From assembly GCA_040256005.1 (NCBI GenBank), contig JBDZWC010000030.1:1-26554 (forward strand): DNA of 26,554 nucleotides, written 5' to 3'. Shown piece by piece: positions 2,284 through 24,340 of this stretch. A program made the translations under genes and the position numbers. Position 1 is the first letter of the stretch; the number at the start of each line of letters is the position of its first letter. The notes under the pieces were generated by a model that ran no database searches, had not been told where the DNA came from, and saw nothing but the letters and a program-made list of their open reading frames with translations. Source of the stretch: Deinococcaceae bacterium (GTDB taxonomy: Bacteria; Deinococcota; Deinococci; Deinococcales; Trueperaceae).

Positions 2284-5200
2284 ATGAACTGTCCTGTCTG
2301 CGGTCACCAGAACGCCGACGGGGCCCGGTTCTGCTCGAACTGCGGTACCCGCCTCGTGGAGCTTGGTCCGGTCGACGGCGAGCGCAAGCTCGTCAGCGTC
2401 CTGTTCGCCGACGTCGCTGGCTCCACACGCCTGACGGAGCTCCTGGGCGGCGAGGAGTGGGCGACGATCATGAACGGCGCCTTCTCGCTGATGAACCGGT
2501 CGGTGGCCAAGTACGGCGGCACGGTGGGCAGGCTGATGGGAGACGGCATCCTCGCCTTCTTCGGCGTGCCAATGGCCCACGAGGACGACGCCGAACGGGC
2601 CGTCCTGGCCGGCCTGGAGCTGCGGGACGCGGCAGACGCTTACAGTGACGACCTGGCGCAGCGGTACAAGGTCCGTCTGCCGCAGGGCATACCGCCGTTC
2701 GCGGTGCGGGTAGGCGTGAGCACGGGACAGACGGTGCTCACGACGGTAGGCGACGACGTACGGGCCGAGTTCACGGCCATGGGCGAGACGGCCAACCTGG
2801 CGGCCCGACTACAGTCACTGGCCGAAGCAGGTGGGATCCTCATAGACACGACCACGCACGGGCTGGTTCAGCACGCCGTGGAGGCCCTGCCGCTGGGCGC
2901 CAAGCAGGTGAAGGGCATCGCGCGGCCGGTGCAGGTGTTCGAGGTGCTGGGCGTGATGCCTGGCGGCGAGAGGCGGCGGGGGATCGAGGGCCTCAGCTCG
3001 CCGATCGTGGGCCGGGACGTCGAGATGACCACCCTGCGCGACAGGGTCAGGCGCCTGGCGCGCGACGAGGGGAGCTTCGTCTGCCTCATCGGCGAGGCCG
3101 GCCTGGGCAAGTCCCGCATGGTGGCCGACCTGCGCAAGCTCGCCGCCCACGACGTGGGTCGCGCCAAGGCCGAGCTGGGCTGGTACGAGGGGAGGGCGCT
3201 GTCGTATGCGAGCTCGCTGCCGTACTTCGCGCTCCGCGGCACGCTGCTCGACACCATGGGGCTCACCCAAGCCGACGCGAGAGACCAGGTGCGGGAGGCG
3301 CTGGCACGCGCCACCGCACAGGAGGGTTGGGAGGGTGAGCGCCACCGGCCCTACCTCGAACTCCTCCTCGCGGTCGAGGACGAGGCCACGGCGGACTCCG
3401 TGCGCGAGCTCGACGGCACGGTCCTGACCAGGCGCATCTCCGAGGCCGTGCTGGCCTACGTGCGGTGGTTCGTCACGGGTCCCACCGTCCTGGTGTTCGA
3501 GGACATCCATTGGGCGGACACCGCCACGGTCCGGTTGCTGTCCGAGCTGGCCGCGCTGACGGCGCCCGGCGAGCTGCCGCTCATGATCCTCGCCGTCACG
3601 AGGCCGGACAGGCAGTCGCCCGCCTGGCGCCTGGCGGACGCGGCCAAGGAGAACGCCGGCGGGGCGTACGTGGAGCTGAAGCTCGCACCGCTGGACGAGA
3701 ACGGTTCGCGCGAGCTACTCACGCAGTTGCTGGGCGGCGAGGACCTGGGACCCGTGCTGGCGCGTGTGCTGGAGCGTTCCGACGGCAACCCGTTCTACCT
3801 CGAGGAGGTGCTCAGGTCCCTCATCGAGGCCGGTCACGTCACGCGGGAGAACGGGCGGTGGGTCGTCAAGGGCGACATCGAGGACGCCCAGGTGCCCGGC
3901 ACCCTCGAGGGCGTGCTGAGCGCGCGCATCGACAGGTTGCCGGAGCGCGCCAGGCAGGTGGCGCAGACGGCCGCCGTGGTCGGCCGCACGTTCCCACGCA
4001 GCGTCGTGGACTCCGTGTTCTCTCACCCGTCGAACCCGTGGCGCCTGGAGGACGTCGGACCTCAGCTGGAGACCCTCAGCACCGAGGAGTTCGTCAGGCT
4101 CATGACCGGGCCGCCGGACGAGGAGTACGCCTTCAAACACGTGCTCACGCAGGAGGCCGCGTACGGACGTCTGCTCACCACCAGGCGAGCTCTCCTGCAC
4201 CGGCTGGTCGCGGAGGTGCTGGAACGGCAGTACGTCGACCGCCTGGCCGACGCGGCCGCGATGCTCGCCCACCACTTCGAGAGCGCCGAGCAGTGGCTCA
4301 AGGCGGCGGACTACTACCGCACGGCCGGTGACCGGGCGCTACGGCTGAACGAGCTGACCGAGGCGCTGAGGCTCTACGACGCCGCCCTCAAGTCGCTCGA
4401 CTCCCACGCCGACAAGGTGGATCAGGACGCTGCCTGGCTCTTCGCCACGGTGCACACGCTGGCCGAGTGGGTGAGGATCGCGACGATAGCCAAGCGCCAC
4501 GAGGACGCCGAGTTCCGCCGGGAACAGCTGATCCCACAAGCGCTCAGGAACGTGGACTTGGCGAGGCGGCTCGAGGACGATCAGGCGCTGGTCCGGGCGC
4601 TCGTTCAGCTCGGCAACGTGTACGTGCTGTCGGGAGAGCCGGGCACCGGTTTCGGGTACCTGCTCGAGGCGCACGACCTGGCCGAAGACTTCGGTGACCA
4701 GCGGGTGTTCCTGCTGCCGCTGTGGGCCAGCACGGAGCTCATACTCAACGACGACCCCAGCGTGGCCGAGAAGCGCTTCGCCGAGATCATCGACATCGCC
4801 CACGGCCAGGCCGGCGACAGGGCGGTCGAGGCGCACGCGCTCGCCTCTCGTGCGGTGGCCCTCGCCAGGATGGGCCGCTTCGAGGAGAGCCTGGCGCTCA
4901 TGCCACGGGCGCTGGAGGCGGCCGACGCCAGCGGTTCGGTCATCAAGGTGGCGGACGTCAACATGCTGATCGGCGGCGCCCTCATGGACATGGGGCACGG
5001 CGACCTGGGCCTGCGGTACGTGATGTACGGCCGGGACAAGGCCCTCAGCATCGAGGGCCGGGAGTGCGCGACCGCTGGCCTGCTGCTCACCGGGATCGGC
5101 GAGCTGGCGCGCCGGCAGATAGACCCCGCCATCCAGAACCTCGACCTGTCGGAGGAGATGGCCGTTGGCACGGTCATGGAGTCGCACCTCTACAACCAGC

Positions 5201-5595
5201 GCGCGGCGCGGGCGGCTTGCGAGGTGCAGCGTGGCGACGTCACGGCCGCGGAACGGCTCCGTGAGCAGCTCGAACGTGCCGAGGCCATGCAGGACGGCTA
5301 CGGGCGGTCGATGGCCGCCATGTTCCTGGCCGAGTCCCTGGTGGACAGCAGCAGGCCGGAGGAGGCCCTGCTCCACGCCGGCTCGGCCCTGGAGTGGTAC
5401 CGCGAGAGAGGGATGACTCCGTACGTCATCAGGGGGCTGAAGGTGCTGGCAGCCGCCGACGAGGCCCTCGGCAGGCAGCCGCAAGCGGACGCGGCGCGGT
5501 CCGAGGCGGCGCGGTTGAAGGCCACGCTGCCGGTCGTGGACCCGTCGTTCCTCGGTGAACCCGGTACCGAACGGGCGGTGCAAGCCGTAGCCTAG
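2284..5595 (+). CDS. Zn-ribbon + class III adenylate/guanylate cyclase + STAND (AAA_16-type) ATPase + TPR-like protein
   Basis: GGAGG precedes ATG 2284, so the start is moved from the ORF track's 2161. Motifs: CPVC...CSNC ribbon; cyclase VLFADVAGST, RLMGD, TAMGETANLAARLQ; Walker A GEAGLGKS; Walker B VLVFEDIHWAD; STAND GNPF; helical repeat C-terminus. Confidence 0.93.
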   Translation: MNCPVCGHQNADGARFCSNCGTRLVELGPVDGERKLVSVLFADVAGSTRLTELLGGEEWATIMNGAFSLMNRSVAKYGGTVGRLMGDGILAFFGVPMAHEDDAERAVLAGLELRDAADAYSDDLAQRYKVRLPQGIPPFAVRVGVSTGQTVLTTVGDDVRAEFTAMGETANLAARLQSLAEAGGILIDTTTHGLVQHAVEALPLGAKQVKGIARPVQVFEVLGVMPGGERRRGIEGLSSPIVGRDVEMTTLRDRVRRLARDEGSFVCLIGEAGLGKSRMVADLRKLAAHDVGRAKAELGWYEGRALSYASSLPYFALRGTLLDTMGLTQADARDQVREALARATAQEGWEGERHRPYLELLLAVEDEATADSVRELDGTVLTRRISEAVLAYVRWFVTGPTVLVFEDIHWADTATVRLLSELAALTAPGELPLMILAVTRPDRQSPAWRLADAAKENAGGAYVELKLAPLDENGSRELLTQLLGGEDLGPVLARVLERSDGNPFYLEEVLRSLIEAGHVTRENGRWVVKGDIEDAQVPGTLEGVLSARIDRLPERARQVAQTAAVVGRTFPRSVVDSVFSHPSNPWRLEDVGPQLETLSTEEFVRLMTGPPDEEYAFKHVLTQEAAYGRLLTTRRALLHRLVAEVLERQYVDRLADAAAMLAHHFESAEQWLKAADYYRTAGDRALRLNELTEALRLYDAALKSLDSHADKVDQDAAWLFATVHTLAEWVRIATIAKRHEDAEFRREQLIPQALRNVDLARRLEDDQALVRALVQLGNVYVLSGEPGTGFGYLLEAHDLAEDFGDQRVFLLPLWASTELILNDDPSVAEKRFAEIIDIAHGQAGDRAVEAHALASRAVALARMGRFEESLALMPRALEAADASGSVIKVADVNMLIGGALMDMGHGDLGLRYVMYGRDKALSIEGRECATAGLLLTGIGELARRQIDPAIQNLDLSEEMAVGTVMESHLYNQRAARAACEVQRGDVTAAERLREQLERAEAMQDGYGRSMAAMFLAESLVDSSRPEEALLHAGSALEWYRERGMTPYVIRGLKVLAAADEALGRQPQADAARSEAARLKATLPVVDPSFLGEPGTERAVQAVA

Positions 5596-5599
5596 GGCC

Positions 5600-7291
5600 A
5601 TGCCAGACGAAAGCGCCTCCACCACCGGGGCGCGACCCAGGAAGCCGCTGATCGTAGCGGTCGATGACGACCCGTCCGTTCTCGCCTCCGTGTCCCGGGA
5701 CCTGCGCCGTCACTACGGCGAGGCGTACCGCGTGCTGAGGGCCGACTCCGGCCAGCGCGGACTGGAGCTCACGGAGGAGGCCAAGCTGCGTGGCGACGAC
5801 GTCGCCCTCTTCTTGGTCGACCAACGCATGCCGCAGATGAGCGGGCTCGAGTTCATCGGCCGCGCGCGGGAGCTGTTCCCCGAGGCGCGCCGCGTGCTGC
5901 TCACCGCCTACGCGGACACCGAGGCGTCCATCAAGGCGATCAACGAGACCCGCTTGCACTACTACCTCATGAAGCCGTGGGACCCGCCGGAGGAGCGGCT
6001 CTACCCGGTGTTGGACGACCTGCTCGACGACTGGCGGGCCATCCACCAGCCGGTGTTCACCGGCGTGACGGTGGTGGGTCACGCCTACGCCCCGGCCTCG
6101 CACGCGTTGAAGGACTTCCTGACGAGGAACCTGGCGCCGTACCGGTGGCTGGACGTGGAGCTGAGCTCCGAGGCTCAAGAGCTCATGCGCCTGGCCGGCG
6201 CCGGCGCCGGCGACCTGCCGCTCGTGGTGCTGCCCGACGGCCAGCAGCTGGTCAAGCCCGAGCTCTTCGAGCTGGCCGGCCGCATCGGCCTCAAGCAGCG
6301 CCCGGAGCTCAAGTCCTATGACCTCGTCATCGTGGGCGCCGGACCGGCCGGGTTGGCCGCTGCCGTCTACGGCGCGTCGGAGGGCCTGAGCACGCTGCTC
6401 GTCGAGGCGGAGGCGCCGGGCGGTCAGGCCGGGCTGTCCTCGAGCATCGAGAACTACCTCGGCTTCCCCTCGGGCCTCTCCGGCGCCGACCTGACGCGGC
6501 GGGGCGTGACCCAGGCGCGGCGCTTCGGGGCCGAGATCCTCAACCCGGTGCGCGCGACGGGCATGCGGCTCGAGGACCCGTACCGGGTCATCACGCTCTC
6601 CGACGGCAACGAGGTGGCTGCCAGGGCTGTGCTCGTGGCGACGGGCGTGGCCTACCGCCGGCTCGACGTGCCTGGCGCCGACGACCTCACGGGCGCCGGC
6701 GTCTACTATGGTGCCGCGGTCACGGAGGCTATGTCGGTCCAGGGTTCACGGGCGCTGGTGGTGGGCGGAGGCAACTCGGCAGGCCAGGCCGCCATGTACC
6801 TGTCGCGCTTCGCCGAGGAGGTCTGGGTCCTCGTGCGAGGCAAGGACCTGGCGGCGAGCATGTCCAGTTACCTGATCGCGCAGCTACACGACAACGAGAA
6901 GGTCAAGCTGAAGTACCGCACACAGGTGCGTGCGGTGAACGGCGACGGCCGGCTCAGGACCGTGACGCTCACGGATCTCGACTCCAGCGCGGACTCGGAG
7001 CACGAGGCCGCGGCCGTGTTCGTCTTCATCGGCGCCGCGCCGCATACCGAGTGGTTGCCGCCCGAGGTCGCCAGGGACCCGCAGGGCTACGTGCTCTCGG
7101 GCTCGGACGTCGTCGTCGCCGACGGTGAGGAAGGGGCGCACCGACGCGAGCCCACGTGGCTCGAGACCAGCGTCCCGGGCGTGTTCGTGGCGGGCGACGT
7201 GCGTCACCGGTCCGTCAAGCGCATCGCCTCCGCGGTGGGCGAGGGCGCCATGGCCCTGCAGGGCATCCACCGTCATCTGTCGGGAGCGTGA
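5600..7291 (+). CDS. Response-regulator receiver domain fused to a thioredoxin-reductase-like FAD/NAD(P)H oxidoreductase
   Basis: REC motifs VAVDDD, LVDQRMP (phospho-Asp), LLTAY, MKPW. TrxB-fold motifs GAGPAG, IENYLGFP, VATG, GGGNSA, TSVPGVFVAGDV. No CxxC. Confidence 0.92.
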   Translation: MPDESASTTGARPRKPLIVAVDDDPSVLASVSRDLRRHYGEAYRVLRADSGQRGLELTEEAKLRGDDVALFLVDQRMPQMSGLEFIGRARELFPEARRVLLTAYADTEASIKAINETRLHYYLMKPWDPPEERLYPVLDDLLDDWRAIHQPVFTGVTVVGHAYAPASHALKDFLTRNLAPYRWLDVELSSEAQELMRLAGAGAGDLPLVVLPDGQQLVKPELFELAGRIGLKQRPELKSYDLVIVGAGPAGLAAAVYGASEGLSTLLVEAEAPGGQAGLSSSIENYLGFPSGLSGADLTRRGVTQARRFGAEILNPVRATGMRLEDPYRVITLSDGNEVAARAVLVATGVAYRRLDVPGADDLTGAGVYYGAAVTEAMSVQGSRALVVGGGNSAGQAAMYLSRFAEEVWVLVRGKDLAASMSSYLIAQLHDNEKVKLKYRTQVRAVNGDGRLRTVTLTDLDSSADSEHEAAAVFVFIGAAPHTEWLPPEVARDPQGYVLSGSDVVVADGEEGAHRREPTWLETSVPGVFVAGDVRHRSVKRIASAVGEGAMALQGIHRHLSGA

Positions 7292-8745
7292 TGGAGACCG
7301 GCGGGATCCACCTGGACTACCTGCGGCGCGTGCCGCTGTTGCAGGCCCTCTCCGACAAGGACCTGCTGGACCTGCTGCAGCGGGCAGAGGAGATCGTGCT
7401 CGAGCCGGGCACCGTGCTGTTCCGCGAGGGCGACCAGGGGGACGACCTCTACGTGGTGCTGGAGGGCGAGCTGCTCATCTCCCGCCGTGTGCGTGAGATC
7501 GACGACGTGATCGCCGCCCGCGGTCCCGGCGAGTTCGTGGGTGAGATGGCGGTGGTCGTAGGGCGTCCCCGTTCCGCCACCGTGACGGCCGGCAAGCGAA
7601 CCAGGCTGCTCAGGCTGGGTCGCGCCGCGTTCGAGGAGCTGTTGGCACGCTCGTCGCACGCGGCCACCGCGATCGTCGGCTGCATGGCCACGCGCATCGA
7701 GGACGAGCAGGTGAACAGGTCGCGGGACGAGAGGCTCGTGGCGTTGGGCACCATGGCCGCCGGCTTGGCTCATGAACTGAACAACCCGGCCTCGGCGCTG
7801 GCCCGCAGCACCGAGGCGTTGGGTGAGGCGCTGGCGGCCCGCGACCGTTCCGTCATGCAGCTCCTCTCCGGCGAACTGTCGCCCGCGGAGAAGGAGATCG
7901 TCATGAAGCTGGGCGAGGCTTCCACCTCGCGATCCGCCGCTCCCGACGCCGGCGGGGATGGGCGGGGCCGGCCTTTGCCAGATCCCGACGAAGAGGACGA
8001 GCTCACGGACTACCTCACCGACATCGGCCTCGAGGAGCCATGGGAGGCCGCCCCGGCTCTCCTGCAGGCAGGTTGGACGATAGACGACGTGAGGTCGGCG
8101 TTGGCGTCCTTCCAGGCGGCCAACCGGCCGGCGGTGGCGCGGTGGCTCGCCACCGATGCGGTCTCGCGCGTGCTGTTGGACGAGATCGCCATGGCGACCG
8201 GCTCGATCGTGGCGCAGGTCAAGGCCGTCAAGGTGTCCAGCCACATGGACAGGGCCTCGTTCGACGAGGTGGACGTCCGAGAAGGGCTGGAGAGCGCCCT
8301 GGTCATGGTGAAGCGCAAGCTGGGCTCCGGCGTCAAGGTGGTGAGGGAGTACGACCCCGACCTGCCGCGCATCGAGGCGTTCCCAGGCGAACTGAACCAG
8401 GTGTGGACCAACCTCATAGACAACGCTCTTGACGCCATGGGCGGCTCAGGCGTACTGACGCTGCGCGTGCAGGGCGGCGAGGGCCAGGTCTCGATCGAGG
8501 TCTCCGACACCGGGCCGGGGATCCCCGCCGAGGTGCTCCCCAAGCTCTTCGAGCCCTACTTCACGACCAAGGGCGTCGGCGAGGGCACCGGCCTGGGCCT
8601 ACCCCTGGCCCTCAAGACCGTCGAGCAACGCCACGGCGGACGTATCAGGGTCGCCTCGATGCCGGGGTCGACGACCTTCAGGGTTACGCTGCCCATCGCC
8701 AGAAGGAAGGCGTTCGCGGCGGCAGCACAGCCAGCCGACGAGTGA
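7291..8745 (+). CDS. Cytoplasmic histidine kinase with N-terminal cyclic-nucleotide-binding domain
   Basis: ATG overlaps the upstream TGA (TGATG). CNBD motifs LFREGD, GEFVGEMA, RSATV. Kinase boxes AHELNNP (H), NLIDNA (N), DTGPGI (G1), FEPYFTTK (F), GTGLGL (G2). No TM segment seen. Confidence 0.93.
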   Translation: METGGIHLDYLRRVPLLQALSDKDLLDLLQRAEEIVLEPGTVLFREGDQGDDLYVVLEGELLISRRVREIDDVIAARGPGEFVGEMAVVVGRPRSATVTAGKRTRLLRLGRAAFEELLARSSHAATAIVGCMATRIEDEQVNRSRDERLVALGTMAAGLAHELNNPASALARSTEALGEALAARDRSVMQLLSGELSPAEKEIVMKLGEASTSRSAAPDAGGDGRGRPLPDPDEEDELTDYLTDIGLEEPWEAAPALLQAGWTIDDVRSALASFQAANRPAVARWLATDAVSRVLLDEIAMATGSIVAQVKAVKVSSHMDRASFDEVDVREGLESALVMVKRKLGSGVKVVREYDPDLPRIEAFPGELNQVWTNLIDNALDAMGGSGVLTLRVQGGEGQVSIEVSDTGPGIPAEVLPKLFEPYFTTKGVGEGTGLGLPLALKTVEQRHGGRIRVASMPGSTTFRVTLPIARRKAFAAAAQPADE

Positions 8746-8756
8746 GAGAGGTCAGT

Positions 8757-9818
8757 ATGCTTCGCCGGTTCGGTCGCGTGCTCGCGGCGGTGTCTGTCAT
8801 CACGGTGTCGTCGTGGCTCACCTCGCCAGCGGTGGCGCAGGCACCGGGGTGTGGCGGGCTGGAGCGGCCGATCGTGTTCGGCGAGCTCGACTGGGAGAGC
8901 GCCCAGGTGGCGACGTGGATCGCCAGGCTGGTGCTGGAGACGGGCTTCGACTGCGAGACGACGGCGATCCCAGGCACCGTCGTGCCCCTCTACCAGGGCG
9001 CGATAAGGGGCGACGTCGACGTGATCATGGAGGTCTGGACCGACAACACGCCCGTGCAGTGGACGGACGCCGTGGCCGAGGGCGTCGTCGAGCAGGCCGG
9101 GGTGGCCTTCGACGATGCGGTGCAGGGCTGGTACGTGCCCCGCTACCTCGTCGAGGGCGATCCGGACCGTGGGATCGCCGCAGCGGCGCCGGAGTTGCGG
9201 TCGGTCTTCGACATCCCGCGCTACAAGGAGCTGTTCCGCGACCCGGAGGACCCGAGCAAGGGACGGTTCTACAACTGCGTCATCGGCTGGCAGTGTGAGC
9301 TGGTGAACTCGGTCAAGCTGCACGCCTACGGCCTCGACGACGACCTGACGAACTTCCGGTCGGGTACGGGCGTGGCGCTCGCGGCGGAGCTGGAGGGCGC
9401 GTACCGGCGCGGCGACCCGTGGCTGGGGTACTACTGGGGGCCCACCTGGGTACTGGGCGAGCTGGACCTCTACATGCTCGACGAGCCGCCCTTCAGCCAG
9501 GAGTGTTGGGACGCCTTCACCGCCCTCGTAGACCGGCCCGAGGAAGCGGAGTCCGCCTGCGCCTACCCCACCTCCACCGCGGTGGTCGGCATCGGCTCGC
9601 GGTTCGTCGAGGACGCGCCGCAGGCCGTGCGCGCGTTCCTGGACGCCTACCACGGCAACAGCGCCATGCTCTCCCGCGCTCTGGCGTACATGCATGCCAA
9701 CGACGCCACGCCGGAGGAGGCGGCCCGCCACTTCCTGCTGGAGAAGAGCGACGTCTGGGGCGCATGGCTCCCGCCGGACGTCGCCGCCAGGGTCGCCGCG
9801 GCGTTCGACGCGCCCTAG
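8757..9818 (+). CDS. Glycine betaine/proline-type ABC transporter substrate-binding protein (ProX/OpuAC family)
   Basis: Signal peptide ending AVA-Q; ProX-family segments LDWESAQ, MEVW, GWYVPRY, CVIGWQC, YYWGPTW. GAGAGG precedes ATG 8757 (alternative GTG at 8742). Confidence 0.87.
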   Translation: MLRRFGRVLAAVSVITVSSWLTSPAVAQAPGCGGLERPIVFGELDWESAQVATWIARLVLETGFDCETTAIPGTVVPLYQGAIRGDVDVIMEVWTDNTPVQWTDAVAEGVVEQAGVAFDDAVQGWYVPRYLVEGDPDRGIAAAAPELRSVFDIPRYKELFRDPEDPSKGRFYNCVIGWQCELVNSVKLHAYGLDDDLTNFRSGTGVALAAELEGAYRRGDPWLGYYWGPTWVLGELDLYMLDEPPFSQECWDAFTALVDRPEEAESACAYPTSTAVVGIGSRFVEDAPQAVRAFLDAYHGNSAMLSRALAYMHANDATPEEAARHFLLEKSDVWGAWLPPDVAARVAAAFDAP

Positions 9819-9821
9819 ACC

Positions 9822-10706
9822 GTGGCCGGGGTCCTGTCTGCCGAGTTCCCCTCAGCCTGGCAGGTCCCGCTGAGGGAGTGGACCAACGCGTTCGTCGACC
9901 GCCTCGTCGACGACTACTCGGCTGCGTTCGACGGGGTCTCCAGCGCCCTGCTGTTCGCGCTCGCTCAGGTAGAGCGCGCCCTCCTCTCCCTGCCCTGGTG
10001 GTTGGTCGCGCTGGCCCTCGCGGCGCTCGTCTGGCACGCGACCGGCCGCAGGTGGATGAACGGGGCCCTCGTCCTGGTCGCCCTGGTCCTCGTCGGCAGC
10101 TTCGGGCTGTGGCCCCAGACGGTGACGACCCTGGCGCTCATGACGCTGGCCTCCGTCACGTGCGTGATCATCGGCGTGCCGCTCGGCGTGCTGATGGCCA
10201 GGAGCGCGGCGTTCAAGGCGTTCCTGCGCCCGATCCTCGACCTCATGCAGACCATGCCGAGCTTCGTCTACCTCGTGCCGGTCGTGATGTTCTTCCGCTT
10301 GGGCAACGTCTCGGCCCTCTTCGCGACGATCGTCTACGCGATCCCGCCGGTGATCCGTTTGACCGACCTGGGCCTGCGCTCCGTCGACAGGTCGCTGGTC
10401 GAGGCGGCGGAGACCGCGGGAGCGAGCGAGGGACAGGTGCTGCGGTACGTGCGCTTGCCGCTGGCCCTGCCGACGGTCGCAGCCGGTGTGAACCAGACGA
10501 TCATGCTGGCGCTGTCCATGGTCGTGTTGGCGTCGATGATCGGCGCCAGGGGCCTGGGTCAGGAGGTCTTGCGAGGCCTCCAGCGCGGCGACGTCGGGTT
10601 GAGCCTCGAGGCCGGGCTCGCCATCGTGCTGCTGGCCGTGATCCTCGACCGGGTCACCGCCGGCTATGGCAGACGCCTGGACCCGGACGCCGAGGAGCGC
10701 GGCTGA
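9822..10706 (+). CDS. proW: Glycine betaine/proline ABC transporter permease (ProW family)
   Basis: Multiple TM helices; PILDLMQTMPSFVYLVP, PPVIRLTDLG, EAA loop, GVNQTIMLALSMVVLASMIGARGLG. Confidence 0.9.
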   Translation: MAGVLSAEFPSAWQVPLREWTNAFVDRLVDDYSAAFDGVSSALLFALAQVERALLSLPWWLVALALAALVWHATGRRWMNGALVLVALVLVGSFGLWPQTVTTLALMTLASVTCVIIGVPLGVLMARSAAFKAFLRPILDLMQTMPSFVYLVPVVMFFRLGNVSALFATIVYAIPPVIRLTDLGLRSVDRSLVEAAETAGASEGQVLRYVRLPLALPTVAAGVNQTIMLALSMVVLASMIGARGLGQEVLRGLQRGDVGLSLEAGLAIVLLAVILDRVTAGYGRRLDPDAEERG

Positions 10707-10823: not shown

Positions 10824-11759
10824 GTGCCCGTCAACCGCCTTATCGAGTTGCCAGAGGAAGAGGTGACCCCGGAGGAGATCTACCTCAACCGGCGGTCGTT
10901 CATGAAGGGGGCCGTCGCCCTGACGCTGGGCGCGGTCGCCAGCCGCGCGCTGGGTCAGTCCGGCGAGGGCTCAGAGATCGACCTCTCCGAGCTGGGCACG
11001 ACGGACGAAGCCCTGACGGACTACGAGGCCGTCACGACCTACAACAACTTCTACGAGTTCGGCTACGAGAAGTCGGACCCGTCGCGCCGCAGCGGCGACT
11101 TCGTCACCGAGCCGTGGTCCATCGAGATCGGCGGCCTGGTAGAGCAGAGCGGCACGTTCCCGCTCGAGGAGATCGTCTCCCAGTTCGAGCAGGTGAGGCG
11201 CGTCTACCGCCTGCGTTGCGTCGAGGCGTGGTCGATGGTGATCCCGTGGAACGGCTTCATGCTGCGTGACCTGCTCGAGGCCGTGCGGCCCACGCCGGAG
11301 GCCCGGTTCGTGGCCTTCGAGACGGTCTTCCGCCCCGAGCAGATGCCCGGCCAGAGGCGGGGGATCCTGCCGTTCCCGTACGTCGAGGGGTTGCGCCTGG
11401 ACGAGGCCATGCACCCGCTCACGCTGCTCGCCACCGGGCTCTACGACCGGCCCCTCAAGAACGCCAACGGCGCCCCCATCCGCCTGGTGGTGCCCTGGAA
11501 GTACGGCTACAAGAGCATCAAGTCCATCGTCAAGATCACGCTGACGGCCGAACAGCCGCCCTCGACGTGGAACATCTACGCGCCGCACGAGTACGGCTTC
11601 TACGCGAACGTCAACCCGAACGTCGACCACCCGCGCTGGAGCCAGGCTTCCGAGCGGCGCATTGGCGAGTTCCGGCGCCGCGACACGTTGATGTTCAACG
11701 GCTACGGCGACCTGGTCGCCGACATGTACGAGGGCATGGACCTGGTCAGGAACTTCTGA
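10824..11759 (+). CDS. msrP: Protein-methionine-sulfoxide reductase catalytic molybdoenzyme subunit MsrP (YedY)
   Basis: GAGGAGG SD; Tat motif [27 protein letters not shown] (Mo-ligand Cys); [30 protein letters not shown]. Confidence 0.97.
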
Positions 11760-11791
11760 GCGCCCAGCGGGACAGCGTGTCGGGCGGAGCG

Positions 11792-12499
11792 ATGGTGGCG
11801 GGCGACCGGCAAGGTCGCGCTCGTTCAGCGCCGAGCCGGGCTGGGAACAAGGCGGCCCAGAAGCGTTGGCGGCGCATCAGCCACCTCGGTCTGTGGGCGC
11901 TGACCCTCACCCCCGCCGTCGTCACCCTCATCGACACGTTCACGTGGAACCTGGGCGTGGACCCCATCGAGACGCTGACCCATCGCACCGGCTGGTGGGC
12001 CATAGTCCACCTCGCGGCCACGCTGGCCGTTACACCGCTCAGGCGCCTCTTCGGCTGGCACTGGCTCGTGAGGTACCGCAGGCAGCTGGGGTTGGGCTCG
12101 TTCATCTACGCGTCCTTGCACCTGGGCGTCTACGCGTTCCTCGACCTGGGACTCGACTTCTCGCACCTGGCCGAGGACATCGTCGAGCGACCCTTCATCA
12201 CCGTGGGCTTCACGTCGTGGTTGATCCTGTTGGCTCTGGCGCTCACCTCCACCACGGCCTCGATGCGGCGCCTGGGCAAGCGTTGGACGATGCTGCATCG
12301 TCTGGTGTACGTCGCAGCCGGCCTGGTCTCGCTCCACTACATCTGGGGCCAGAAGGTGCTGGAGACGCAACCGCTCCTCTTCGCCGTGCTCTTCGGCGTC
12401 CTGCTCGCCGCCCGCGTCTTCTACTCGTGGTGGAAGCGTCGCGCTCGCCCGGCGCGTAGCCTGGCGACCCGGCGAACGGTAGCCGAGCCTCGGTCCTAG
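11792..12499 (+). CDS. msrQ: Heme-binding membrane subunit MsrQ (YedZ)
   Basis: Directly after msrP; LGVDPIETLTHRTG, RRQLGL, YASLH, RPFITVG, LALTS, LGKRWTMLHRLVY. Start is approximate (ATG 11792 after GGAG). Confidence 0.94.
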   Translation: MVAGDRQGRARSAPSRAGNKAAQKRWRRISHLGLWALTLTPAVVTLIDTFTWNLGVDPIETLTHRTGWWAIVHLAATLAVTPLRRLFGWHWLVRYRRQLGLGSFIYASLHLGVYAFLDLGLDFSHLAEDIVERPFITVGFTSWLILLALALTSTTASMRRLGKRWTMLHRLVYVAAGLVSLHYIWGQKVLETQPLLFAVLFGVLLAARVFYSWWKRRARPARSLATRRTVAEPRS

Positions 12500-12551: not shown

Positions 12552-13115
12552 ATGGGTTCGAACGGTCAGGACGTGACGCTCTCGGGCGCACCGGACGGCA
12601 AGGGTCTCGCGGTGGGCGAGGTGCCTCAGGAGTCGCACCTCGTCGCCTACTCGGAGTCGGCCTCGCGCGACGGCCGTCGCCTCGTCGTAGGGGCAGTGGT
12701 GACCGACGGCGCCGGCCGGGTCTTCGTGCAACGGCGCAGCCGGGACCGCGAGCTGTTCCCTGGCACCTGGGACGTGGTGGGCGGCCATGCGGAGACCGGC
12801 GAGGACGCTCTCGCCGCACTGCGTCGCGAGGTGCTCGAGGAGACCGGCTGGCGAGTGCTGACCTTGGGGCCCATAGTCGAGCTGATCGACTGGGAGGCCA
12901 ACGGTGTCAGCCGCCGGGAGGTGGACCTGCTCGTGACCGTGGACGGCGACCTGGCTGCGCCCGCCCTGGAGGCCGGCAAGCACGACGAGTGGCGCTGGCT
13001 GGGGCGCGGCGACACCGCACTGCTCGACGAGGGACGCCGCGCCGAGGACGTCTGGCTCAGGGGCATGATCGAGCGCGCGCTGGACCTGCTGGAGAAGACG
13101 GCCTTCGGACGCTGA
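12552..13115 (+). CDS. Nudix hydrolase (Idi-like N-terminal segment)
   Basis: Nudix box GGHAETGEDALAALRREVLEETG, preceded by QRRS...FPGTWD. TAGCCT lies 5 nt before the ATG. Confidence 0.88.
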   Translation: MGSNGQDVTLSGAPDGKGLAVGEVPQESHLVAYSESASRDGRRLVVGAVVTDGAGRVFVQRRSRDRELFPGTWDVVGGHAETGEDALAALRREVLEETGWRVLTLGPIVELIDWEANGVSRREVDLLVTVDGDLAAPALEAGKHDEWRWLGRGDTALLDEGRRAEDVWLRGMIERALDLLEKTAFGR

Positions 13116-20361: not shown

Positions 20362-21248
<887 letters not shown>

Positions 21249-21252
<4 letters not shown>

Positions 21253-22316
21253 GTCTCGCTCCTCGCTACCGGACCGACCGGTTGCTGCTGGGTCACGCAG
21301 TGGAACGCCCCGCCGCCCGTGATGAGCCCGCTGGCCGGCAACCCGATCACGTCGCGGCCGGGGAAGAGCGGACGCAGGGTGGCCAGGGCACGCTCGTCGT
21401 TCGGATCCCCGTAGACGGGGACGACCACGAAGCCGTTGCCCACGTACCAGTTGGCGTACGTTAGCGGCAGGCGGTTGGGTCCCAGGTAGGCGCTGCGCTG
21501 CGGCAGCGGCAGTTCGACGATGTCGTACGGCCGGCCCTCGGGCGTGCGCAGCGACCGCAGCACCTCCAGGTTCGCCTGCATGGTCGCGTGGTTGGGGTCG
21601 TCCTCGTCCTCCTCGACGCTCGCGACGATGACGTCCTCGGCGGCGAACCTGACGATCGTGTCGACATGGCCGTCGGTGTGGTCGCCCTCGAGGCCCGCTC
21701 CCAGCCACACGACCTGCTGCGCTCCCAGCCAGCGGGCGAGCAGCGCCTCGATATCGCCCTCGCTCAGTCCCGGGTTGCGGGTCGGCGTCAGCAGGCAGGA
21801 GCGAGTGGTGATACACACGCCACGGCCGTTGAGCTCGAGAGCTCCGCCCTCCATGATCGCGTCCACCTCATAGCGCCTCATGCCCAAGGTACGGCTCACG
21901 GCCAGCGGCGCGCGGTCGTCGTCATCCCACGGCGCGTACTTGCCGCCCCAGGCGTTGAAGCCCCAGTCGGTCAGAGCGACGCTGCCGTCCTCCTCGCGTA
22001 CGAAGAGGGGCCCGTTGTCCCGGAACCAGACGTCGTTCAGCGGCACCCGGTGGAACGTGATGGCGCCCTCGTCGGCGCCGGCGGCAGGCAGCCGCTGCCT
22101 CGCGTCACGCTCCGTGTCGTCGTCCCTGACGTTCAGAACGACGGGCTCGTAGCGCGCGATCGTGGCCACCAGGCCGGCGAAGTCGCGCCTCGCCGTCTCC
22201 AGCTGACCCTCCCACAGCTCGTCATCGAAGGGCCAGCTCGTCCAGGTGGCCGCGTGAGGCTCCCACTCGGCCGGGAAGGAGAGCCGTGGGGTAGCGCCTG
22301 GGACGGGACGTGACAT
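21249..22316 (-). CDS. aguA: Agmatine deiminase (PAD family)
   Basis: PAEWEPH, WFRDNGP, FNAWGGKY, MEGGA, DHTDGHVD, YANWY, GGGAFHCVTQQQP (catalytic Cys). Confidence 0.95.
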
Positions 22317-22325
22317 CGGAAGGAG

Positions 22326-22334
22326 ATGCTAGCA
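22326..22334 (-). promoter_or_regulatory. Extended -10 (TGC-TAGCAT) for aguAB
   Basis: Minus-strand TGCTAGCAT ends 9 nt before the aguA ATG; no SD present. Confidence 0.55.
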
Positions 22335-22420
22335 ACTGTGCCGCTCCCGCCCTGTGCCTGCGGGCCGTCCCCGGTCGCCGCCAACGCGGGCTCCGGTGCC
22401 GTAGGCGCTACCCTGGCGTG

Positions 22421-24340
22421 GTGACGAAGCTATCTCTCGACCCCGGCTTCTCGGTCGCCGATGCCGACGAGCTGTACGGCGTGCGGTCGTGGTCCACCGG
22501 CTACTTCGGTATCTCTGACCGCGGCGAGGTCACGGTCTCCGACCGGGACGGCGCGCCCGTGCCCATCATCGACATCGTGCGCGACCTGCAGGAGCGCGGG
22601 CTCGACCTGCCGCTCACGCTGCGCTTCCCCGACATCATAGAGGACCGCCTGGACCGCATCAACGAGTCGTTCGCCACCGCGATCCGCGAGGCTGGCTACG
22701 GGTCGCACTACCAGGGCGTCTACCCGGTCAAGGTCAACCAGCGCCGCGTGGTGCTGGAGACCATCGCCGGCTACGGCGCGCGCTACCGCACGGGGCTCGA
22801 GGCCGGCAGCAAGGCCGAGCTCGCCCTGTGCCTGGCGCACGACACGCACGACGACGCCCTGCTGTGCTGCAACGGGTTCAAGGACGACGACTTCATCAGG
22901 CTCGCGCTGTGGGGCAAGAAGCTCGGCCGCAACGTGATCATCACTCTCGAGAAGGCCGGCGAGCTGGAGCGGGTGCTGCGCATCAGCCAGGAGATGGGAG
23001 TCGAGCCCTCGCTCGGCGTCCGCTTCAAGACGCACGCCCGCGGCACGGGCCAGTGGGAGTCGTCGGGCGGCGACGACGCCAAGTTCGGGCTCACGGCCGC
23101 CGAGCTCGTGCACGTGGTCGAGCGCGTGAAGCGCGAGGGCCTGGCGCACGCTCTCGAGCTGCTCCACTGTCACGTAGGCAGCCAGCTGACCGACATCAGG
23201 CGCATCCGCGTCGCCGTGCGCGAGGCCACCCAGGCGTACGTCGAACTGGCCGAGCTGGGCGCTCAGGTCAAGTACCTCGACGTCGGCGGCGGCCTGGCCG
23301 TGGACTACGACGGGTCGAAGACCACCTACTACGTCTCGGCGAACTACAGCCTGCGCGAGTACGCGGACACGGTGGTCTACACGATCATGGAGGTGTGCGA
23401 CAACGCCGGCGTGCAGCACCCGGTGATAGTCACCGAGTCGGGCCGGGCGCTCACGGCGCACCACTCGGTGGTCATCGTGCCCGTCGTGGATGCCATCGGC
23501 CCCACGCGGGACCCGGTCGAGCTGCCGCCGCTGGACGGTGAGGAGCAGCACCAGCTCGTCAAGGACATGCTCGAGCTCGAAGGCCAGGTGACCGCGAAGT
23601 CATACCGCGAGGTGTTCAACGAGGCCGTTGCGAACAAGGAGACGATGCACAACCTGTTCGACCTGGGCTACCTGAGCCTCCTCGAGCGGGCGCACTTCGA
23701 GCAGCTCTACAACCGCATCCTGGTCCGGGTGGCCAAGGTGGTAAGGGACCTCGACTACGTCCCCGAGGAGTTCGAGGCGCTGCCCCGCATGCTGGCCGAC
23801 AAGTACGTCGTCAACTTCTCGGTGTTCCAGACGCTGCCCGACCACTGGGCGATCAAGTCGCTCTTCCCGATAGCGCCACTGACGCACCTCGACAGGAAGC
23901 CAGACCGGGACGCCACGCTGGTGGACATAACCTGTGACTCGGACGGCAAGATCGACAGCTTCATCGACCTGCGCGACGTCAAGCGCACCTTGCCGGTGCA
24001 CCAGGTGAAGCCGGGCGACAGCTACTACCTGGGCATCTTCCTGACGGGTGCCTACCAGGACGTGCTCGCCAACGCCCACAACCTCTTCGGACGCGTGAAC
24101 GAGGCCCACGTGCGACTGACGCCGGAGGGCGGCTACGAGGTCGAGCTCTACGTGGAGGGGCAGAAGGCGAGGCGGGTGATACGGAACATGGGCTTCGAGA
24201 CGCCCGACCTACACGCCGCCGTAGCCCAGCAGGCCGAGGAGGTGATGCAGGCGGGCGGCATGTCAGAGGCGGAGATGGCCGACTTCCTGGAGCTGTACGA
24301 CAGGGAGCTCGTCGGTTACACCTACCTCGAGGCCGTCTGA
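22421..24340 (+). CDS. speA: Biosynthetic arginine decarboxylase
   Basis: LRFPDI; YPVKVNQ (PLP Lys); GLEAGSKAEL; CNGFKD; KFGL; HVGSQ; DVGGGL; ESGRA; DITCDSDG; GAYQ. GTG 22421 is preferred because TACCCT lies 6 nt upstream. Confidence 0.96.
   Translation: MTKLSLDPGFSVADADELYGVRSWSTGYFGISDRGEVTVSDRDGAPVPIIDIVRDLQERGLDLPLTLRFPDIIEDRLDRINESFATAIREAGYGSHYQGVYPVKVNQRRVVLETIAGYGARYRTGLEAGSKAELALCLAHDTHDDALLCCNGFKDDDFIRLALWGKKLGRNVIITLEKAGELERVLRISQEMGVEPSLGVRFKTHARGTGQWESSGGDDAKFGLTAAELVHVVERVKREGLAHALELLHCHVGSQLTDIRRIRVAVREATQAYVELAELGAQVKYLDVGGGLAVDYDGSKTTYYVSANYSLREYADTVVYTIMEVCDNAGVQHPVIVTESGRALTAHHSVVIVPVVDAIGPTRDPVELPPLDGEEQHQLVKDMLELEGQVTAKSYREVFNEAVANKETMHNLFDLGYLSLLERAHFEQLYNRILVRVAKVVRDLDYVPEEFEALPRMLADKYVVNFSVFQTLPDHWAIKSLFPIAPLTHLDRKPDRDATLVDITCDSDGKIDSFIDLRDVKRTLPVHQVKPGDSYYLGIFLTGAYQDVLANAHNLFGRVNEAHVRLTPEGGYEVELYVEGQKARRVIRNMGFETPDLHAAVAQQAEEVMQAGGMSEAEMADFLELYDRELVGYTYLEAV

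Follow-up and report, generated by a model that had tools for sequence, protein, structure and literature searches.

The first 26,554 nucleotides of contig JBDZWC010000030.1 (assembly GCA_040256005.1), from a bacterium placed in the Trueperaceae and here called the window, carry three co-directional genes, which we refer to as the triad. They encode a class III nucleotidyl cyclase joined to a STAND ATPase, a response-regulator receiver fused to a flavoprotein, and a histidine kinase with a cyclic nucleotide (cNMP)-binding domain (Table 1). All three open reading frames are intact, with a 4-nt gap between the cyclase and flavoprotein genes and a 1-nt stop/start overlap between the flavoprotein and kinase genes; the arrangement and domains given in an initial annotation, made from the letters of the window alone, were borne out by the reading frames and by Pfam. 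The highest 19-residue hydropathy means were 1.38, 1.59 and 1.27 for the cyclase, flavoprotein and kinase, respectively, so that no clear membrane helix is predicted in any of them and all three appear cytoplasmic, as the annotation had proposed. Other genomes and loci are cited below by our own numbers (G and L).

Table 1 Genes of the triad and their downstream neighbours in the window
Feature	Position	Strand	Description
Class III cyclase gene	2284-5595	+	Open reading frame, 1103 aa; zinc ribbon, cyclase, STAND ATPase, TPR
Receiver-flavoprotein gene	5600-7291	+	Open reading frame, 563 aa
cNMP-domain histidine kinase gene	7291-8745	+	Open reading frame, 484 aa
ProX/OpuAC-like binding protein and ProW-like permease	8757..10706	+	Betaine-type transporter genes
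MsrP and MsrQ-like methionine-sulfoxide repair genes	10824..12499	+	Lineage-specific neighbours
NUDIX hydrolase	12552..13115	+	

In the cyclase protein, Pfam models placed a zinc ribbon at residues 3-24, Guanylate_cyc at 36-211 (PF00211, 64.3 bits against a cut-off of 21.9), AAA_16 at 241-435 and a weak TPR_12 match. The residues that define a class III nucleotidyl cyclase are kept (the metal-binding Asp43 and Asp87, with Asn171 and Arg175), and the active-site motifs are near-invariant across phyla. The protein is also a STAND NTPase, with AAA_16 above its cut-off, an intact Walker A Lys276 and Walker B Asp407, and an AlphaFold model with helical repeats from about residue 670, the best fold match of which is the STAND-TPR protein 6mfv. 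Cyclase-STAND-TPR proteins go by the name SWACOS, and the triad cyclase may belong among them. The best sequence and fold matches to the cyclase itself are CyaB (3r5g) and CyaC (1wc0), which share the four catalytic residues and Thr164. The triad cyclase differs from them in sharing an operon with a cNMP-pocket kinase and in its base-selecting position, Arg83, where CyaB has Lys; Arg occupies this site in 104 of 104 cyclase homologues. The overall cyclase sequence and Thr164 point to cAMP, which we favour with modest confidence as the predicted product, followed by cCMP, cGMP or cUMP.

The flavoprotein combines a Response_reg domain (residues 18-130) with a Pyr_redox_2 domain (240-549), and the receiver residues Asp22/23, Asp74, Thr102 and Lys125 are present. 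Between the two lies an alpha/beta domain of about 85 aa for which no Pfam match was found; from its secondary structure, this cysteine-free domain is putatively glutaredoxin-like. The model of the protein (predicted local distance difference test score, 92.6) has the thioredoxin reductase (TrxR) fold in the flavin-reducing conformation. In fold and in FAD and NAD(P)H motifs it resembles TrxB (TIGR01292; 7aaw, 2q7v and 3cty; Z 34.7 and root-mean-square deviation 2.0 over 303 residues to 3cty), but it differs in its extra receiver and middle domains and in having no cysteine at all among its 563 residues, the TrxR CxxC site being replaced by Tyr369-Tyr370-Gly371...Glu376. In an alignment of 137 family members, this Tyr-Tyr-Gly...Glu segment, the FAD and NAD(P)H motifs and the phospho-relay residues are near-invariant, and the CxxC site is free of cysteine. 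Because it lacks cysteine and CxxC and scores 225.5 bits with TIGR01292, below the cut-off of 343.45, we rejected its identification as a thioredoxin reductase; its output must be something other than classical thioredoxin reduction. The TrxB-fold output first proposed therefore stands as to fold and cofactor motifs and falls as to TrxB-like thiol chemistry. Bdr/YpdA (7a76), B. subtilis FNR (3lzw) and IruO (5twb), which act outside the thioredoxin pathway, also work without the TrxR CxxC and share the fold (Z 25.9, 27.3 and 26.9, respectively), but at 20-22% identity they are more distant in sequence than TrxB, and none is known to be phosphorylation-gated.

The third protein, a soluble histidine kinase with an H-box His161 and HATPase_c (PF02518, 91.1 bits), carries a cNMP_binding domain at residues 36-120. 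The phosphate-binding cassette of this domain is intact (Gly84, Glu85 and Arg94-Ser95-Ala96), which makes it a cNMP domain of the CRP/PKA type, and the pocket aligns with PKA, PKG and CRP-type domains; the Gly, Glu and Arg of this cassette bind ribose and phosphate (PMC11224242). The C-helix residues are too variable for calling the bound base. Only 3 of 64 kinases at loci found through the flavoprotein keep the cassette, which places the triad kinase in a minority, the pocket being degenerate in most family members. In a tree of 116 kinase domains, a branch with weak support (75) has all 23 kinases with an intact pocket on one side, and in a larger tree (n = 137) two changes are enough to explain pocket state. 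The degenerate-pocket members of the module probably sense something else. In other genera of the family, arrays of 2-4 degenerate-pocket kinases accompany one flavoprotein (L123, L168, L170, L172 and L174-177); their pockets share a different conserved motif, which suggests another ligand.

To place the triad among its relatives, we drew a flavoprotein-centred sample of 80 distant GTDB loci, kept from 600 matches. It includes L013, from the unpublished genome G401, which is negative in all counts and is also among the 137 aligned sequences. A family kinase lay nearby in 66 of the 80 loci, some of the other 14 being short contigs, and a cyclase in one, where it is of a different type and in divergent orientation; a broadened profile gave the same result. 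The flavoprotein and kinase are thus a widespread module, with the cyclase outside its core. That such a pair occurs in other genomes had been correctly noted, and the class is already catalogued: with its phospho-Asp receiver, oxidoreductase domain and adjacent kinase, the flavoprotein is a TrxB-type response regulator of the P2CS class. The available text of two reports lists receiver-TrxR-like domains with a classic kinase in P2CS/P2RP, for example Streptomyces coelicolor SCO7298 and its kinase SCO7297 (PMC9739842, PMC9953108), and that of two others describes SCO7298 as inducible by persulfide and acid shock (PMC9952706, PMC2631018). We liken the triad pair to SCO7298/SCO7297 by description, as a receiver-TrxR-like fusion with a kinase, not by sequence. 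In the available text of these sources, such regulators are only catalogued or expression-profiled and are treated as thioredoxin reductase, with no report of a cyclase link or of the pocket dichotomy.

The commonest third partner of the pair is a small zf-UBP gene, present in 17 of the 80 loci (L014, L015, L016 and 14 more of L001-L080), also present in L185-187 and L189 and fused to the kinase C-terminus in L278 and L279 (Chloroflexota); no zf-UBP match was found in the window's genome. Rhodanese, flavoprotein disulfide reductase and ergothioneine-synthesis genes adjoin some relatives of the flavoprotein, EgtB-like genes being near it in 6 and EgtD-like genes in 4 of the 80 loci (L015:3166-5359, L030, L057, L064 and L046). 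Near the module in a Chloroflexota metagenome-assembled genome, L060:11299-11946 matches an NpmA-like 16S rRNA methyltransferase at 176 bits.

On the flavoprotein-centred loci alone the cyclase appeared to be an incidental neighbour, a view that was dropped after a reciprocal, cyclase-centred search. Within the window's genus, the flavoprotein is found in 11 of 11 other genomes, with the cyclase upstream on the same contig in 10 and its TPR end in the eleventh; this conservation is weak evidence, because the flanking genes are conserved too. The triad also occurs in three other genera (G093, G076, G114, G127, where it is partial, and G133), with different flanks in G114 and G133. In 75 cyclase-centred metagenome loci, an Arg-type cyclase is followed by a flavoprotein and an intact-pocket kinase in L185-189, L194 and L216, and has the flavoprotein upstream in L190. 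A Devosia sp. A16 protein shares 89-91% identity with the L185 and L186 cyclases, and a Rubrobacteraceae protein 74-84% with those of L194 and L190. Among genomes, the cyclase was matched in 3 of 351 Actinomycetota, 7 of 81 of one actinobacterial order (including the unpublished genome G1170, used in this tally only) and 6 of 251 Chloroflexota. None of 401 Pseudomonadota genomes had a match at E<=1e-120, so the Devosia-like case consists of metagenome contigs and protein identity only.

Gene order varies: cyclase-flavoprotein-kinase in the window, L185-189 and L194; flavoprotein-kinase-cyclase in L280; flavoprotein-cyclase-kinase in L296, the cyclase of which is identical to the Rubrobacteraceae protein over aligned columns; and cyclase-kinase in L290, L297, L299 and L300. 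In four Rubrobacteraceae-like loci the cyclase and kinase are retained, but no intact flavoprotein gene adjoins them. The linkage was seen in Trueperaceae, Rubrobacteraceae, Chloroflexota and the Devosia-like contigs, in what are apparently four phyla, and in four gene orders. In G133, two cyclase-STAND copies flank the pair (L130:6556-16402), the second seemingly without the first metal Asp motif. Split flavoprotein or cyclase frames, through assembly error or decay, were seen in L126 (G008), L165 (G136), L166 (G102) and L180 (G133).

Linkage to an Arg-type cyclase was seen only beside intact-pocket kinases. Of 140 kinase reading frames, 44 have an intact pocket, and 25 of these have such a cyclase within 4.2 kb; of the 96 with a degenerate pocket (76 of them well flanked), none does. 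A motif filter had dropped L280 (pocket and cyclase), L169 (pocket, no cyclase) and L133 (truncated), and the L115 cyclase is cut by a contig end. The core clade of the cyclase tree has 44 rows: 27 linked, a label that needed the Arg motif, 5 clearly unlinked, 7 contig-cut and 5 without context. When the loci of the 55 non-Arg cyclase rows were read directly, only two had the module: L187, where the row is a second cyclase lying upstream of a triad, and L281, which is divergent and has a degenerate pocket. Because sampling followed the cyclase and its close kin, these counts are no statistical test, and since the tree gives one independent pair, an independent test of the association is impossible. 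What carries the case is that the linkage outlasts rearrangement, that a second cyclase type stands beside intact-pocket kinases and that phosphodiesterase-like genes are present. In L282 and L284, the gene immediately after an intact-pocket kinase is a cyclase-NB-ARC-TPR gene of another type (24% identity). The phosphodiesterase-like genes lie in triad loci L216, L280 and L296, with matches below curated cut-offs; the sole PDB matches of the L216 gene are Rv0805/Icc, and the genes in L280 and L296 have the MBL (metallo-beta-lactamase) fold. The neighbourhood co-occurrence by which the three-gene proposal was to be judged is therefore found in the subfamily with an Arg-type cyclase and an intact-pocket kinase, and not for the pair generally, 79 of the 80 distant loci being cyclase-free.

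Judged from its sequence features, the triad is probably a cytoplasmic signal chain running from a ligand through a STAND oligomer and a cNMP to kinase His161, receiver Asp74 and the flavoenzyme. By analogy to other STAND proteins, a ligand on the TPRs would trigger ATP-dependent oligomerization and with it cyclase dimerization. The cyclase would then make a cyclic nucleotide, most likely cAMP, which in the intact kinase pocket would control autophosphorylation of His161, and the phosphoryl group would pass to Asp74. Phosphorylation may in turn gate electron transfer from NAD(P)H via FAD to an acceptor other than thioredoxin during redox stress; the likeliest acceptor, as in Bdr/YpdA, would be a disulfide or persulfide of low molecular weight. 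This gating step is the weakest of the mechanism. A redox-stress role is weakly suggested by the MsrPQ neighbours, by the neighbours of relatives and by SCO7298 induction. All catalytic and phospho-relay residues are present across the triad, and together with the subfamily adjacency they partly support the cascade from signal through cNMP and His-Asp relay to a redox enzyme that the initial annotation had sketched. Its description as self-contained, like TrxB thiol chemistry, is not supported: the gene run extends into the transporter and MsrPQ genes, and the host genome holds 3 cyclases and 13 cNMP-domain matches, triad members included. The triad is best read as a cyclase-fed branch of the widespread two-component module.

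Several observations weigh against this reading. The cyclase is absent at 79 of 80 distant flavoprotein loci, and the whole block is syntenic within the genus, so that those genomes add little. Thirteen well-flanked intact-pocket kinases have no Arg-type cyclase nearby, although one of them, in L284, is accompanied by the second cyclase type. The module is missing beside five cyclases of the core clade (L132, L298, L303, L304 and L305), and in G020 cyclase and module are 350 kb apart. Divergent cyclases of other kinds lie near the degenerate-pocket loci L016 and L281, and the host genome holds two further cyclases and 12 further cNMP-domain matches. The association of cyclase and pocket may have a single origin, and the Lys-to-Arg change could lower or alter cyclase activity.

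The cyclase could instead be an inherited neighbour with separate targets, the pair acting alone or on a general cAMP pool. The 79 cyclase-free loci, a linkage possibly of one origin, the unlinked copies in G020, G231 and G240 and the 13 cNMP-domain matches all fit such passenger linkage. We nevertheless consider it unlikely, since adjacency survives four gene orders and different flanks, cyclase and kinase are still joined where the flavoprotein is gone, a second cyclase type has been recruited beside intact-pocket kinases, and phosphodiesterase-like genes join triad loci.

In a bolder version of the signal chain, the messenger made by the Arg-type cyclase would be private and non-canonical, for instance cCMP. 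No cyclic-pyrimidine pathway with a housekeeping role would have preceded it, and it would likewise be the first wiring of STAND, cNMP and His-Asp relay to a new, cysteine-free enzyme of the TrxR fold. In the available text on EaPycC, which makes cCMP, the specificity residues Phe100 and Arg142 precede the catalytic Asp102 and Asp146 by two and four residues, respectively (PMC11224242), a spacing matched by Phe41 and Arg83 here, the equivalence being inferred from numbering. Class III cyclases generally have this Phe, however, and the third position is not shared (Met85 here, Gln144 in EaPycC). A private nucleotide would explain how specificity is kept amid three cyclases and 13 cNMP-domain matches, but we hold this version to be unlikely.

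The logic could also be reversed or looped: as a redox sensor or a sink for phosphate, the flavoprotein would exert feedback on the kinase or the cyclase, and another receiver or a CRP-type regulator elsewhere would be the output. The missing catalytic cysteines would suit such a sensor, as would the four Rubrobacteraceae-like loci without an intact adjacent flavoprotein gene and several family loci with two to four kinases per flavoprotein. This seems improbable, given that the near-invariant FAD and NAD(P)H motifs and the flavin-reducing conformation of the model are as expected of an active enzyme, and that no other receiver was seen to recur beside the module.

The initial annotation had speculated on an anti-phage role like that of Avs or Pycsar. 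Such a role, in which the TPRs would recognize a protein of the phage and the flavoenzyme would be toxic as an NAD(P)H oxidase, is very unlikely: the available text of a preprint does put STAND-fused cNMP cyclases in a predicted immune clade (10.64898/2026.08.12.744502), and the base-selecting Arg matches the spacing in cCMP-making PycC, but throughout the genus the locus is stably placed in a housekeeping neighbourhood, the cyclase active site is near-invariant across phyla, PADLOC gave only domain-level PycC and PycTIR matches, and the 9 of 112 neighbours from 12 loci that match PADLOC models are mostly generic enzyme domains. Avs membership was rejected for want of any Avs model at E<=0.001 and because the neighbours are housekeeping genes. 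Pycsar and Pucsar systems resemble the triad in setting a dedicated cyclase beside a cNMP-binding effector. They differ in that the triad effector is a kinase rather than a TIR or membrane protein and lies outside defence islands; PycC structures, moreover, rank far below CyaB as matches to the triad cyclase. Pycsar membership was accordingly rejected, the partner being a kinase and the matches covering only the shared cyclase and cNMP domains. Separately, L300:834-4485 is possibly a STAND-gated Pycsar-like unit: some 3 kb away from the cyclase-kinase pair there is a second cyclase-NB-ARC-TPR gene, of the Lys type, with a PycTM-like gene (E 8.6e-15) in divergent orientation to it.

Downstream of the triad, a fourth co-directional gene begins 11 nt past the kinase gene. 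It opens the transporter genes, which are probably co-transcribed with the kinase gene; they are linked to the triad only in the window's genus and genus g8 and lie outside the conserved core. No ATPase gene was seen adjoining the betaine-type binding protein and permease. A 61%-identical relative of the NUDIX hydrolase sits between cyclase and flavoprotein in G093. RNA-labelled assembled contigs cover the triad genes and their neighbours in pieces of 170-270 bases, for which a DNA origin is possible, so that they are of no use as evidence of transcription, and a promoter and terminator scan gave nothing exceeding chance. Upstream, at 1732-1956 on the minus strand, a 75-aa reading frame without a Pfam match diverges from the cyclase gene; a 476-base contig over it had a depth of 52 in one RNA-labelled run. 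Further along, 20362-24340 is an ordinary polyamine cluster, with genes for an agmatine-deiminase-like protein, an arginine decarboxylase and a probable amidohydrolase.

The triad is probably functional and apparently undescribed, though assembled from known parts. What is new is its linkage across phyla, the correspondence of cyclase subfamily with pocket state, the Arg substitution and the partner genes that resemble phosphodiesterases. A search of the open-access literature returned nothing that describes the triad, the pocket dichotomy or the biochemistry of the pair (closed journals were outside its scope), in agreement with the earlier remark that no functional characterization of the pair, especially with a linked cyclase, was known.

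If the proposed chain is right, three layers of signalling that tend to be investigated separately, namely STAND receptor, cyclic nucleotide and two-component relay, would be joined without any transcription step, with an enzyme at the end of the chain. On account of its invariant Arg, the cyclase is a candidate for a nucleotide specificity that would be unusual outside the field of phage defence. Because only a few activating ligands are predicted for the branch with an intact pocket, the kinase and flavoenzyme should be switchable in vitro, which would give an experimental handle on a widespread, uncharacterized class of regulators labelled thioredoxin reductase.

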